Positions 24,972 through 31,881 of a stretch of 64,000 bases of DNA are shown here, in pieces. The DNA lies in the sequence record OL964735.1. One strand, given 5' to 3'. The stretch is from Escherichia phage T4. The notes below the pieces were generated by a model, which did no database searches, had not been told where the DNA came from, and saw nothing but the letters and a program-made list of their open reading frames with translations. A program made the position numbers and the translations under genes. How positions within the stretch are numbered: position 1 is the stretch's first letter; each line of letters begins with the position of its first letter.

Positions 24972-27020
24972 TTATCCTTGAACGAACTTGTAAGGCATGT
25001 TTGCAATATCTATGCAAGACGCAATAATTCCAAGAGATGATTCTACTTTCTGTTTAACATTTGATGAAACAAATGATGCAAAGTCAACTCTATCTTCTAT
25101 ATCACCTGTCATTGTAACCAATTCACCAGTTTCCATTAAATGGTCTCCGTCATAGATTACCGATTCGGTGAGTTCTTCTGTGGTCATAACTTCAGCTTGA
25201 ATAAGCTTGTTGTTAGTTTTAACTGTTCCATCATTGTAAGATGCATCGGTTATTTTATTAACTTTGACCATTAATCCACGTGGCAAAATGACTTCCATTT
25301 CATTTGAAGGCGCTAAACTTCCACCGGGTAAAACAACATTGACCTTATCAGCCCCAGTAATAACCCATCCAATTCCAACTAAATTATCGCTAGAATTTAC
25401 AAGTCCTTCATCAGTTTTATCAATAGAAACGCTTAAACGCTTTTCGTCTGGTAAAACACCTATAGATGAATCAGTCATCCAAGTACCAAAAATATTTGGA
25501 TATAATGATGTTGACACAAAGTTTCTAAAATAAAAAACTCGATTTTTTACCATTGCTTCGTATATTGAAGGTAACATTCGTTGTGAACGATACAAAGTAA
25601 TACCTTTTGGTAATCGTTCACCATTTTTAAAGGCTGAATCTAAATTATCAATAGCTTTTTCTATGTCAGATGCTGTCAAAATACTTGTACGCTCATCTGG
25701 ATTATATAATCCCAAAAGAGCATTATTTATGTCTACATATCCTGAACCTACGTATTCACGAATTCCGCGTTTTTGCGCTGGTGTGTATTTAGATGAATCT
25801 TTATTTTCGACTATAGGATGTAATGACCATCCAGCGGTAAGAGCATATCCACGTAATTCTCTTCGAATAATCTTTGTTTTTATTGCATTCCAAGAATTTT
25901 GTACTAACTCATTTGCAGCATCTTGGTTTAAATGCGAATGTTTGTTAATATTTCTTTCAAACCAAGCACCCTTATATTTTTCTAAAGTATCATCGACGAT
26001 AGAAGCAATAGTTTCTAAGGTTTTTATTGAAGTAATAGATTCTTTTCGTAATCTTTCTAAAGCTTTATTTTTTATTTCTGCGTTAATAATGGATTCTTTA
26101 TCTTCAGGAATTATAGAAGCTTCTCTGAATGCCATCCCAGCTGTAACACTGCTAAGAGCATTCTCTAGTGCAAATCCTGAAGTAGAAATTACCGTTAATT
26201 CATTAGAATCAGAAATTAAAGGCGCGTCCGCTGGTTTATTTAATTCGGCCGCTGAAGCCTCAAATTTTTGAAACATTGGTGTTTCAAATCTAGAAGATTC
26301 CAATGACTGACTTTGCGCAATTGCTCTACGGGAAATTTTAACTTTAACGATTACAGCTTGGTCAGAACGTTTATCATTTTCTTGCGCAATAGATGCTGCA
26401 ATTGCCTCATTTTTAGTTACTTGAGCCCCAGTATCTTTATTGATATAAACATCACCGACCTTCGATTCAACTTTAGTAAAGAGCTCGGTACTAATTTCCG
26501 GAACTCCTGGAATGTCTTCTAGTGATACATTTTTGCGATGTATAAGAATATATGCATACTTTTTATCGTAATCCCAGAGTTCCTTAAGAAGGACGTATCT
26601 ACCACCTGAACGACTACGGATAAGTCTATCAGCAATAACTTGAATTTGTCGAGCTTGGCCAGCAGTTTTAGACTTAAGAATACGGAGCATACAGGCATCA
26701 ATTTTATACTGGCGCATTGTTTGCATTGCAACAGTAAAAACTGAATTGATATAATTAATTGGGCTTGGACCAAGACCTTTTAATTTAGCAATTGAACCTT
26801 TAGCAGTTAATGTAAAAGGAACAATATGCATCATTTTATCGCCCATCTTTAAATCACGATTAGTATCACCTCCAGATGTATAGGTACATAAACGAAAGCC
26901 TGGTTGTTCAATTGCATCATCAACATGAACTGAAAAAATTTGCGGTATTTTCTTCTTTGGATATAAGTTTGTAATTGGAAGAGTAGTATCTTCGTCAAAT
27001 AATTCTGTAATAAGTTCCAT
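24972..27020 (-). CDS. alt: Alt ADP-ribosyltransferase (virion-packaged)
   Basis: track gives 683 aa from the first of two ATGs; GAGG RBS spacing favours the second ATG (682 aa). Confidence 0.93.
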   Translation of the reverse strand: MELITELFDEDTTLPITNLYPKKKIPQIFSVHVDDAIEQPGFRLCTYTSGGDTNRDLKMGDKMMHIVPFTLTAKGSIAKLKGLGPSPINYINSVFTVAMQTMRQYKIDACMLRILKSKTAGQARQIQVIADRLIRSRSGGRYVLLKELWDYDKKYAYILIHRKNVSLEDIPGVPEISTELFTKVESKVGDVYINKDTGAQVTKNEAIAASIAQENDKRSDQAVIVKVKISRRAIAQSQSLESSRFETPMFQKFEASAAELNKPADAPLISDSNELTVISTSGFALENALSSVTAGMAFREASIIPEDKESIINAEIKNKALERLRKESITSIKTLETIASIVDDTLEKYKGAWFERNINKHSHLNQDAANELVQNSWNAIKTKIIRRELRGYALTAGWSLHPIVENKDSSKYTPAQKRGIREYVGSGYVDINNALLGLYNPDERTSILTASDIEKAIDNLDSAFKNGERLPKGITLYRSQRMLPSIYEAMVKNRVFYFRNFVSTSLYPNIFGTWMTDSSIGVLPDEKRLSVSIDKTDEGLVNSSDNLVGIGWVITGADKVNVVLPGGSLAPSNEMEVILPRGLMVKVNKITDASYNDGTVKTNNKLIQAEVMTTEELTESVIYDGDHLMETGELVTMTGDIEDRVDFASFVSSNVKQKVESSLGIIASCIDIANMPYKFVQG

Positions 27021-28726: not shown

Positions 28727-28992
28727 TGTTCATCCTTTAGAGTTTGGTTTACAGCTCTATTATAAATCAATTCATCATTAAGCTCAGTCAAAGACCTGTG
28801 GTACGTGGTTCTAACTTTATTTCCTTGCATCCAGTGCTTGATATAAATGAAACCTTGCTCTACACATTTTTTAAAAATTCGTTCGTCTTTTTGAGCTCGG
28901 AATTCTGGATTGCATCTAAAAAATTGATTTACGTGACCGTAATCACGTGTAGTATTACCTTCATTTTCATAAATAGTGTGAACAACAAACAT
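28723..28992 (-). CDS. hypothetical protein (30.1 position)
   Basis: 89-aa ORF. Confidence 0.65.
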   Translation of the reverse strand: MFVVHTIYENEGNTTRDYGHVNQFFRCNPEFRAQKDERIFKKCVEQGFIYIKHWMQGNKVRTTYHRSLTELNDELIYNRAVNQTLKDEQ

Positions 28993-29828
28993 TAGAATGC
29001 TCCTTGGAAAATATTATCACCACAAGTAGGTCTATTATACAAATACTCTATACCGCCGGGCTTAATATAGTTCCATGTCTGAAACGGATGCGTCTGATAT
29101 GGATGATATGGATTATAAGGATTAAATCCAGGAGTTCTCCAGGTAGTGTTCCAAGGAAAAGAATCGTTTTTAATCATCTTTTCAATTACATCTTTTATAG
29201 CTTTTTCACTATCAAAACTTTCTTTATTTTCCTTTGGTGAAAAAAGCTTATTCTCTACATCGTTCCATGTATAAACTCGCTGAGCAGTTTTTGGAATATT
29301 GTCACGCTCTCCTCGAGCCATCCAATACACAGGAACACGTAATATTTCACTCGCGTGATCGCAGTGGTGAGCGAGATCGTCAATATAACAAATTACGTTA
29401 TATTTCTCTTTTGCTTTTTTGAACAACTCTTCTTTTGAAGAATCATGACTACACATCAGTACTTCTGAGAAAGCACCAGGAAAAAGAGCATTCAAATTAA
29501 ATTGACGATTTAATAGAGCGTCAATAGAATCACCCAATGCTGTAACAGCAACAAAATTATAATCTTCTTTTAATTTGTTAATTACACACAGAGCATCTTT
29601 ATATGGAGACAAGTAACGAATAAAATCCGAACGATTGTATTTTTCAATTAACTTGACGCCAAGTTCTTCATCACAGTTAAAGAGTTTACCAGGAGAAATA
29701 AATTTCTCATCTTGGATCATTTTTAAAATATGTTCTAACGGAAGATTATATTTCTGAGCAAAATAAGGAAGGCCTGATTGCCAGCTTAAACATACTCCAT
29801 CAATATCAGTTAAAATAGTAGGCTTCAT
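28992..29828 (-). CDS. HAD-superfamily hydrolase-like protein (30.2 position)
   Basis: 278-aa ORF; N-terminal TDIDGV (HAD motif I-like) and YIDD (motif IV-like). Confidence 0.7.
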   Translation of the reverse strand: MKPTILTDIDGVCLSWQSGLPYFAQKYNLPLEHILKMIQDEKFISPGKLFNCDEELGVKLIEKYNRSDFIRYLSPYKDALCVINKLKEDYNFVAVTALGDSIDALLNRQFNLNALFPGAFSEVLMCSHDSSKEELFKKAKEKYNVICYIDDLAHHCDHASEILRVPVYWMARGERDNIPKTAQRVYTWNDVENKLFSPKENKESFDSEKAIKDVIEKMIKNDSFPWNTTWRTPGFNPYNPYHPYQTHPFQTWNYIKPGGIEYLYNRPTCGDNIFQGAF

Positions 29829-30289
29829 AGAGAGTCTCTTAATAGGTTTAACACATCAATAAATTCAGCTTCGGTTAGTATTGTATCATCTTTTGTTAGA
29901 CCACTAGCAATGCTGTGCTTCAAAACTTTTCCTTTCGAGGCTTGTAATGCATCACGAAAGCCCTTGTTTTGAATCGCTGCTTCAAAATATGCATTTGTGT
30001 ATAATTCTTTCCACGCCGGGGAGTATCTTGAAAACGGAACTCCAAGCCAAAAGAGGGTCCCACGGTCCTGAGCTCTAGCATAAGACCTTCCAGCTTGTTG
30101 GGCGGCAAGCCCGGATAACCCAAATATACGACGTTGTTGTTCAACATTTTTCACCTTACACCCTTGGAGGAATCCTTCAAGACCTCCAAATTGAATACCA
30201 TCCATAACGAAAGGCCATTGGGCGAAATTACTTAATGCACATGATGGCCACCTAAAATTGCTTCTAATCTCTAACTCAGACATTTTCAA
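29825..30289 (-). CDS. NADAR/YbiA-like domain protein (30.3 position)
   Basis: 154-aa ORF with ALSNFAQWPF...DG and EGFLQGCK motifs resembling the NADAR family. Confidence 0.65.
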   Translation of the reverse strand: MKMSELEIRSNFRWPSCALSNFAQWPFVMDGIQFGGLEGFLQGCKVKNVEQQRRIFGLSGLAAQQAGRSYARAQDRGTLFWLGVPFSRYSPAWKELYTNAYFEAAIQNKGFRDALQASKGKVLKHSIASGLTKDDTILTEAEFIDVLNLLRDSL

Positions 30290-30482
30290 TGCTTATAATT
30301 TCAACATCAGCCCAATGACCATAGCAAGGAAGACGAAATTCAACTGGCCAGTTAGGGTCCTTTTCTAATATAATAGACTCAACTTGTGGTTCTTCGTGTT
30401 CATCAGTATACGGATTTTTATCTGTTACTTTATATGTGACCTTAATGTACTGAATTCCAAAAATCTTATTAATTATATTCAT
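30276..30482 (-). CDS. hypothetical protein (30.x region)
   Basis: 68-aa ORF. Confidence 0.55.
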   Translation of the reverse strand: MNIINKIFGIQYIKVTYKVTDKNPYTDEHEEPQVESIILEKDPNWPVEFRLPCYGHWADVEIISIENV

Positions 30483-31438: not shown

Positions 31439-31771
31439 TTATTTTACTACTTTCCAATGCTGCATGTCAAGTTTACCAACTTTTTTCATCTTCTCAATTA
31501 AGCGTTCTGCACGTTGGCGAGCTGTAACATAATGCCATTCGCCTAATTCATTTTGTTCAATTTTTCCAACGATTACTGTATTCAATTCATAAATCCAACC
31601 AGTAAAGAAATTATGAACTTGAATTGTAAAGGTGAAATCTGTTCCCATACCTTCTGTTGTTTCTACTTCAATAATATCACCTTCAACTGCCATTAAGAAC
31701 CACATAGTTTCATCATATTTACCATTGAAGCATTTAGTTTTAACTGCAGCGTTCAGATTAATCGTTTTCAT
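31439..31771 (-). CDS. hypothetical protein (30.x region)
   Basis: 110-aa ORF. Confidence 0.6.
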   Translation of the reverse strand: MKTINLNAAVKTKCFNGKYDETMWFLMAVEGDIIEVETTEGMGTDFTFTIQVHNFFTGWIYELNTVIVGKIEQNELGEWHYVTARQRAERLIEKMKKVGKLDMQHWKVVK

Positions 31772-31845: not shown

Positions 31846-31876
31846 GGAAAATAAAAAAGGACTCCCGAAGGAGTCC
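31846..31876 (-). terminator. intrinsic terminator downstream of small basic ORF
   Basis: minus strand GGACTCC-TTCG-GGAGTCC hairpin followed by TTTTTTATTTTCC. Confidence 0.65.
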
Positions 31877-31881
31877 TCAAC

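Follow-up and report, generated by a model that had tools for sequence, protein, structure and literature searches.

Gene 30.3 of Escherichia phage T4 lies on the minus strand of a 64,000-nucleotide stretch of T4 DNA (sequence record OL964735.1; hereafter the window), and its product is almost certainly AdfN (anti-DarT factor NADAR), a stand-alone NADAR-fold ADP-ribosylglycohydrolase countering DarTG1. The fold, activity and counter-defence role of adfN have already been published and the gene has been named; the window shows no departure from the published picture. Gene identity, the NADAR fold and residue conservation come from the present analysis, and the enzymology and phenotype from the literature. 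The analysis adds that a call made from the raw sequence (the sequence-only reading) was right, closes off a partnership with the neighbouring product gp30.2, and points out gene 30.4 in public data. The gene occupies the following position:

29825..30283, minus strand, stop codon included: gene 30.3 = adfN, NADAR-fold DNA ADP-ribosylglycohydrolase, 152 amino acids (NC_000866 annotation and sequence identity)

Over about 1.6 kb around this open reading frame (ORF), the window shows 100% identity to several phage T4 records and 99.9% to the reference NC_000866. The coding sequence (CDS) of gene 30.3 is the same in every base as the CDS of NP_049816.1. The sequence-only reading had the ORF in the right place and on the minus strand, but its length of 154 amino acids counts from TTG 30289, two codons upstream of the annotated ATG 30283, which gives 152. 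An in-frame stop codon lies three codons upstream of this ATG, thus limiting the protein to at most 154 amino acids.

T4 gp30.3 matches the Pfam family PF08010 (Phage_30_3) from end to end, with an E-value of 4.8e-71 and 237.4 bits (cut-off 36). A family alignment was assembled from 38 diverse homologues with 37-86% identity, 20 of which match the Pfam NADAR family PF08719 (best E-value 4.8e-7), and the resulting family profile finds E. coli YbiA (2b3w) among PDB sequences at E = 0.0016. The alignment of the profile to YbiA spans the two motifs for which the resemblance had originally been noticed, SNF..P...DG and E..F.Q..K. In the 152-residue numbering, CALSNFAQWPFVMDGIQFGG makes up residues 15-34 of gp30.3 and LEGFLQGCK residues 35-43, and the YbiA segment matching them is DFSNFAAWPIKVDGKTWPTSEHYFQAQKF. 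The AlphaFold model computed from the family alignment consists of alternating strands and helices and has a predicted local distance difference test score (pLDDT) of 93.3 and a predicted template modelling score (pTM) of 0.88. Its top three Foldseek matches in the PDB are YbiA, the Phytophthora nicotianae NADAR with ADP-ribose (8bau) and the Geobacter lovleyi DarT-linked NADAR (8bat), while matches beyond these are noise. Three residues are relevant to the function of the protein and its placement in the family:

30176..30178, minus strand: codon of E36, the catalytic Glu of LEGFLQGCK, invariant in the 38 homologues and aligned with the YbiA Glu
30155..30157, minus strand: codon of K43, the conserved Lys of LEGFLQGCK, the same residue in at least 90% of the 38 homologues
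29915..29917, minus strand: codon of H123 in the last beta-strand (LKHSI; strand 120-123 of the model), invariant in the 38 homologues

The residue in the last strand is Glu in YbiA-type enzymes, Asp in DarT-linked NADARs and His in phage gp30.3 proteins (PMC11125620). With a PF08010 match above the gathering score and a His in this strand, gp30.3 belongs to the phage clade. Its membership in NADAR is evident at the family level, from the fold and from the catalytic Glu/Lys motif E-x-[FY]-x-Q-x-x-K, so that the call of a NADAR-type ORF with YbiA-like motifs, made from the letters alone, proved correct.

The PADLOC candidate defence protein PDC-M42C is matched by 26 of the 38 gp30.3 relatives, with E-values down to 1e-7, and T4 gp30.3 itself has no match in PADLOC. 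These matches hint at a NADAR component in an uncharacterised candidate defence system.

Phage NADARs, the gp30.3 clade among them, had already been recognised bioinformatically (PMC9503650, PMC11125620, PMC11825919), and a 2022 survey described the NADAR genes of T4-like phages as early genes located beside genes of ADP-ribosyltransferases (ARTs) (PMC9503650). Purified T4 NP_049816.1 hydrolyses ADP-ribose linked to guanine, but not to thymine, on DNA (Cihlova 2024; PMC11125620). The DarTG1 resistance of T-even phages was subsequently mapped to 30.3 and the gene renamed adfN (Johannesman 2025; PMC11825919): T4 without adfN is sensitive to DarTG1 and is fully complemented by ectopic adfN alone, RB69 is rescued on DarTG1 hosts by ectopic adfN, the variants E36A and K43A and a C-terminal truncation are impaired, and purified AdfN strips ADP-ribose from DarT1-modified DNA. 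In an independent T4 transposon screen of late 2025, insertions in 30.3 dropped on the DarTG1 host from an average of 261.0 reads per site to 0.7 (log2 fold change -7.25, adjusted p 0) and had no effect on DarTG2 (+0.03); on plain K-12 the gene is non-essential, insertions being tolerated at 27 of 28 sites (bioRxiv 10.1101/2025.11.20.689424). Reversal of guanine ADP-ribosylation and counter-defence against DarTG, both proposed in the sequence-only reading, are therefore supported by published hydrolysis in vitro (PMC11125620) and by the loss of DarTG1 resistance upon deletion, with which complementation and the catalytic mutants agree (PMC11825919). The checks suggested there, namely a profile hidden Markov model or fold match, hydrolysis in vitro and a deletion on a DarTG host, have all been done, with the outcomes predicted.

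In the methods of PMC11125620, the T4 gp30.3 construct is given as 'residues 1-208', as compared with the ORF of 152, and at most 154, amino acids. This is probably a typing error or a count including a tag, the listed accession NP_049816.1 being this ORF.

The segment affected by C-terminal truncation, which lowers the activity of AdfN (PMC11825919), is a helix in the gp30.3 model:

29831..29872, minus strand: C-terminal helix, residues 138-151 (model helix), absent in RB69 by frameshift

In the adfN gene of RB69 (locus L144, 8268-8681), insertion of a single T leads to a stop after ...ILT and the loss of the last 15 residues, which removes the segment forming this helix. Many T4-like phages have 30.3 genes that are shortened or whose products bear the additional Pfam domains PF11097, PF06919 and PF06019, perhaps by fusion with neighbouring genes; homologues P0007, P0013-P0018, P0022 and P0092 are such cases. 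Together, these shortened and possibly fused genes and the RB69 frameshift suggest repeated decay of adfN in the absence of pressure from DarTG1.

In the mechanism that best explains these results, the host toxin DarT1 of the toxin–antitoxin defence system DarTG1 ADP-ribosylates guanines of the phage DNA and blocks replication, and AdfN hydrolyses the ADP-ribose–guanine bond, giving back unmodified DNA and allowing replication to proceed. Catalysis depends on Glu36 and Lys43 of LEGFLQGCK, and full activity requires the C-terminal helix. The enzyme is specific for guanine adducts and has no effect against DarT2, which modifies thymine. What H123 does and how exactly AdfN carries out the reaction are parts of this scheme that we infer. 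AdfN is in effect a phage-borne orphan copy of a host-type antitoxin: the phage uses the host's own type of antitoxin to remove the modification that a defence toxin has placed on its DNA. AdfN is among the few enzymatic counter-defences known, and through it a large branch of the NADAR superfamily is assigned a function.

Several observations weigh against this account. As a single sequence, gp30.3 has no PF08719 match at E <= 1 and no NCBIfam match, and a search of PDB sequences with it returns only chance-level matches, so that the NADAR assignment depends on the family-level profiles and the fold. The E36A and K43A variants still give partial rescue, and rescue of T5 and Bas25 by AdfN is weak (PMC11825919). 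Furthermore, gp30.3 fails to rescue uninfected E. coli expressing DarT1 (PMC11125620, PMC11825919). The inactivity of AdfN in uninfected cells and its weakness in T5 and Bas25 indicate that enzymatic reversal is not the whole story in vivo and that a T-even context is needed. AdfN is fully active only in T-even infection, possibly via another T-even protein (PMC11825919).

The gene located immediately upstream of adfN deserves attention in this respect:

30276..30482, minus strand: gene 30.4, 68 amino acids, an ORF overlapping the 30.3 start by 8 nucleotides

The DarTG1 table of the transposon screen lists two significant genes genome-wide, 30.3 and 30.4. Insertions in 30.4 decreased on DarTG1 from 375.9 to 108.0 (log2 fold change -1.79, adjusted p 0.014) and were neutral on DarTG2 (-0.03) (bioRxiv 10.1101/2025.11.20.689424). 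This depletion is probably a polar effect on adfN. The 30.3 ATG lies inside the end of 30.4, within the 8-nucleotide overlap of the 30.4 stop with the 30.3 start (ATGTCTGA), and no obvious Shine-Dalgarno sequence precedes it; halted translation of 30.4 should therefore lower AdfN synthesis through lost coupling, and the effect observed is partial, as reduced AdfN dosage would give.

It is conceivable, although rather unlikely, that gp30.4 is a phage helper of AdfN, 30.4-30.3 a two-gene counter-defence cassette and gp30.4 the further T-even factor that the adfN paper posits (PMC11825919). If so, gp30.4 would explain why the activity of T4 AdfN is restricted to T-even infections: 30.4, being T-even-restricted, is expected to be absent from T5, Bas25 and uninfected cells, where adfN works poorly, and it is intact in RB69, where ectopic adfN works. 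Such a role is consistent with the DarTG1-specific depletion of 30.4, the only significant gene besides 30.3, with the lack of effect of insertions farther upstream, in 30.6 and 30.7, and with the view of the screen authors that polar effects are rare (bioRxiv 10.1101/2025.11.20.689424). The main texts of the adfN paper (PMC11825919) and of the transposon-screen paper do not mention 30.4. The only places where 30.4 homologues were detected are directly upstream of T-even-type 30.3; the 32 loci of the 30.2 set without a nearby 30.3 have none, while such loci do contain homologues of 30.1, 30.5 and 30.7. This phyletic pattern is, however, confounded, as a fast-evolving protein of 68 amino acids is perhaps undetectable in distant phages, and distant AdfN-family genes have no conserved neighbour. 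Polarity on adfN remains the preferred explanation of the 30.4 result.

For phage NADARs in general, genomic context has led to the proposal that they act on soluble molecules derived from ADP-ribose, for instance immune signals or RNA-repair by-products. That these are the main substrate of gp30.3 is highly improbable, given that its activity on ADP-ribosylated DNA has been directly demonstrated (PMC11125620, PMC11825919) and that the 30.3 phenotype is strong and specific to DarTG1, none being found in the other screen conditions read (bioRxiv 10.1101/2025.11.20.689424). The enzyme could nevertheless have a second substrate.

The sequence-only reading also placed 30.3 in the same early cluster as the gene of the Alt ADP-ribosyltransferase:

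24972..27020, minus strand: gene alt, Alt ADP-ribosyltransferase (annotation), 2.8 kb downstream of 30.3 on the same strand

Between alt and 30.3 are alt.1, the ligase gene 30, 30.1 and 30.2, and the two genes are indeed physically clustered. Alt is a capsid-packaged protein, and shared early expression with 30.3 is therefore not to be assumed. The T4 ARTs Alt, ModA and ModB modify proteins. The proximity of alt and the YbiA-like fold and motifs of gp30.3 could be taken to mean self-protection of T4 against these enzymes, or a housekeeping N-glycosidase of the YbiA kind with riboflavin intermediates as its substrates, but both are scarcely credible, as gp30.3 is guanine-specific (PMC11125620), unlike the protein targets of the T4 ARTs, has His and not the Glu marking the YbiA family, is dispensable on K-12 without DarTG1 and shows no interaction with alt, modA or modB in the DarTG1 screen (bioRxiv 10.1101/2025.11.20.689424). 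With a log2 fold change of -0.01 for its insertions on DarTG1 (bioRxiv 10.1101/2025.11.20.689424), alt is not functionally tied to adfN in this screen.

An equally slight chance is left to a processing module formed by 30.3 and the gene downstream of it, which had been suggested for the adjacent pair from the HAD-like motifs of the downstream product:

28992..29828, minus strand: gene 30.2, HAD-superfamily phosphatase-like, 278 amino acids, with a core (residues 1-200) and a disordered tail
29880..29905, minus strand: PM30.2, a middle promoter lying within the 3' end of 30.3 (GenBank X53848 feature converted to window coordinates), with a visible TACAAT -10 element

In such a nucleotide/ADP-ribose processing module, ADP-ribose would be freed by the NADAR, and the HAD phosphatase would act on the product or be needed for counter-defence in some other way. 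Cleavage of ADP-ribose is not a known activity of HAD phosphatases. The 30.3 stop overlaps the 30.2 start (ATGA), the two genes are adjacent in all 13 T-even-type loci that reach beyond the gene and also in several further lineages of T4-like phages, and gp30.2 is a true HAD-fold, deoxyribonucleotidase-like protein. However, insertions at 71 transposon sites of 30.2 have no effect on DarTG1 (log2 fold change -0.12, p 0.61) or DarTG2 (0.00) (bioRxiv 10.1101/2025.11.20.689424), and the deletion of adfN is fully complemented by ectopic adfN alone (PMC11825919). The location of PM30.2 within 30.3 means that 30.2 can be transcribed independently of 30.3, from a start of its own.

Nor is the adjacency conserved in the two families. 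A 30.2 homologue is present within 6 kb in 19 of 80 viral loci carrying a 30.3 homologue, and a 30.3 homologue within 6 kb in 28 of 60 loci carrying a 30.2 homologue; in these 28 it is always upstream and on the same strand. At least four T4-like genomes have more than 45 kb between the two genes. The NADAR gene of Citrobacter phage Moon is found at about 69 kb, in the tRNA/internal-head-protein region, and the 30.2 locus taken as belonging to Moon (L107) is at about 129 kb. The numbers of phage records for the 30.2 and 30.3 families (1,439 and 1,510) and their host distributions are alike, but this was rejected as a sign of a functional link, since both genes are widespread in T4-like phages, which makes the similarity uninformative on function. 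As a module acting against DarTG1, the pair is largely refuted, and the adjacency of 30.3 and 30.2 reflects inherited T4-like synteny with no functional unit.

Conserved neighbours of distant gp30.3 homologues were searched for by all-against-all clustering of the ORFs in the 80 loci. The large clusters besides that of 30.3 consist of ORFs overlapping 30.3 on the opposite strand or in other frames, taken as by-products of the conserved sequence. Genes of the T4-like synteny (ligase, 30.2, dCMP deaminase and gp31) occur in at most eight non-T-even loci each. Among the 16 largest clusters, judged by sequence without domain searches, none was conspicuous as an ART, macrodomain or NAD-salvage gene.

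The HAD-like character of the 278-residue product of 30.2, read earlier from its DxDG and YIDD motifs, is confirmed by the motifs themselves, a profile match to 2jao and the fold. DxDG corresponds to D8, D10 and G11, and YIDD to D150 and D151. D8, D10, G11 and K132 do not vary among 34 homologues, and at least 90% of these also share T96, D150 and D151; gp30.2 therefore has the full set of HAD motifs: I (DxDx[TV]), II (S/T), III (K) and IV (DD). The best PDB match of the family profile is the 5'(3')-deoxyribonucleotidase 2jao, at a marginal E of 0.024. In the model of gp30.2, block-mean pLDDT values over residues 1-200 are 85-98, nearly all above 90. Foldseek returns 102 PDB matches at E <= 0.001, and almost all of the 50 listed are HAD-superfamily or engineered enzymes. 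The best target-normalised TM-scores among the matches listed are 0.71 for the deoxyribonucleotidase-like 3bwv and 0.64-0.67 for 4yih and 2jao. The model thus predicts a Rossmann-like HAD core fold with a cap. No Pfam or NCBIfam match was found for gp30.2 at E <= 1, its single-sequence search of PDB sequences gave chance-level matches only, and there is a weak match (0.0033) to the PHROG polynucleotide kinase family. By motifs and fold, gp30.2 is a member of the HAD superfamily outside any named curated family. The literature search on gp30.2 found nothing relevant.

The last ~55 residues of gp30.2 (~226-278; 28992-29150, minus strand) are predicted to be disordered and are rich in Pro, Tyr, Trp and Asn. 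This tail is missing or very different in many homologues. The motif IEYL..(Q/R)PT, about 15 residues before the C terminus, is present in T4 and in 15 of 57 homologues of at least 240 amino acids, and could be a docking peptide.

Genes 30.3 and 30.2 are part of a compact minus-strand series running 30.9 ... 30.4, 30.3, 30.2, 30.1, 30 (DNA ligase), alt.1 and alt, in which the junction between 30.2 and 30.1 is TAATG and that between 30.1 and 30 is ATGA. A scan for promoters and terminators between 24.8 and 33.2 kb found 34 promoter-like sites, compared with an expected number of 30.3, and six terminator-like sites, compared with 4.8 expected; these counts are not above chance, and the scan was therefore left out as evidence. 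A strong terminator-like hairpin is located between 30.9 and 30.8 (31857-31878, minus strand; 9-bp stem with 5 GC, followed by a T-run), and a sigma-70-like promoter just upstream of 30.7 (31441-31470, minus strand; TTGACA, 18-nucleotide spacer, TAAAAT) has 11 of 12 consensus matches. Although such sites overall are not above chance, the two may mark the 5' limit of a transcription unit from 30.7 to 30.

The annotation contains another ORF within gene 30.3:

29920..30147, minus strand: internal out-of-frame ORF 30.3', 75 amino acids (annotation)

The ATG of its first codon is missing in 9 of 13 related loci, with an ATG at the next codon in eight of these nine. In one of the 13 the frame is interrupted by a stop, and the peptide is freely variable. 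The overlap with 30.3' shows no reduction in synonymous-only variation of the 30.3 frame (35 of 75 codons inside and 38 of 77 outside). On these three grounds, the missing ATG, the broken ORF and the unreduced synonymous variation, 30.3' was rejected as a genuine overlapping gene, and comparison of the sequences indicates that it is probably not a conserved gene.

Of the systems described, the published AdfN/gp30.3 (PF08010) is the same protein: the published biochemistry was done with accession NP_049816.1, whose CDS is identical. E. coli YbiA (2b3w), which is both the best profile match and a top structural match, shares SNF...P...DG and E..F.Q..K with AdfN and also hydrolyses guanine-linked ADP-ribose in vitro (PMC11125620). 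Identity between the two is only about 20%, however, and the last strand of YbiA contains Glu. Enzymes of the YbiA type serve a housekeeping function in riboflavin metabolism (PMC11825919, PMC9503650), and YbiA, unlike AdfN, belongs to a LexA-controlled host operon (PMC11125620). The 5'(3')-deoxyribonucleotidases (2jao, 2i7d, 3bwv) have HAD motifs I-IV and the fold in common with the neighbour gp30.2, which differs by an additional tail of ~75 residues, mostly disordered and rich in aromatic residues and Pro. These deoxyribonucleotidase structures include the best profile match of gp30.2 and are among its best structural matches. AdfM, the product of T4 Tk.4 directed against DarTG2, follows the same strategy as AdfN, being an orphan antitoxin-like hydrolase predicted to reverse the DarT modification. 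It differs in having an unrelated macrodomain fold and in countering the thymine-modifying DarT2; its gene is located outside the window.

The DarG1-type NADAR antitoxins, such as that of Geobacter lovleyi (8bat), have the same Glu and Lys as AdfN, carry out the same guanine de-ADP-ribosylation in DNA and were reported as the nearest relatives of the phage gp30.3 clade (PMC11825919). At the position of Asp in the DarT-linked NADARs, AdfN has His123, and it is no substitute for DarG1 in uninfected cells (PMC11125620, PMC11825919). In contrast to DarTG1 operons, adfN is an orphan without an adjoining DarT gene: its neighbours are 30.4 and 30.2, and alt, the only ART gene of the region, has the annotation of an RNA polymerase ADP-ribosyltransferase and not of a DarT. 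AdfN therefore works like an antitoxin, yet outside any toxin–antitoxin system.

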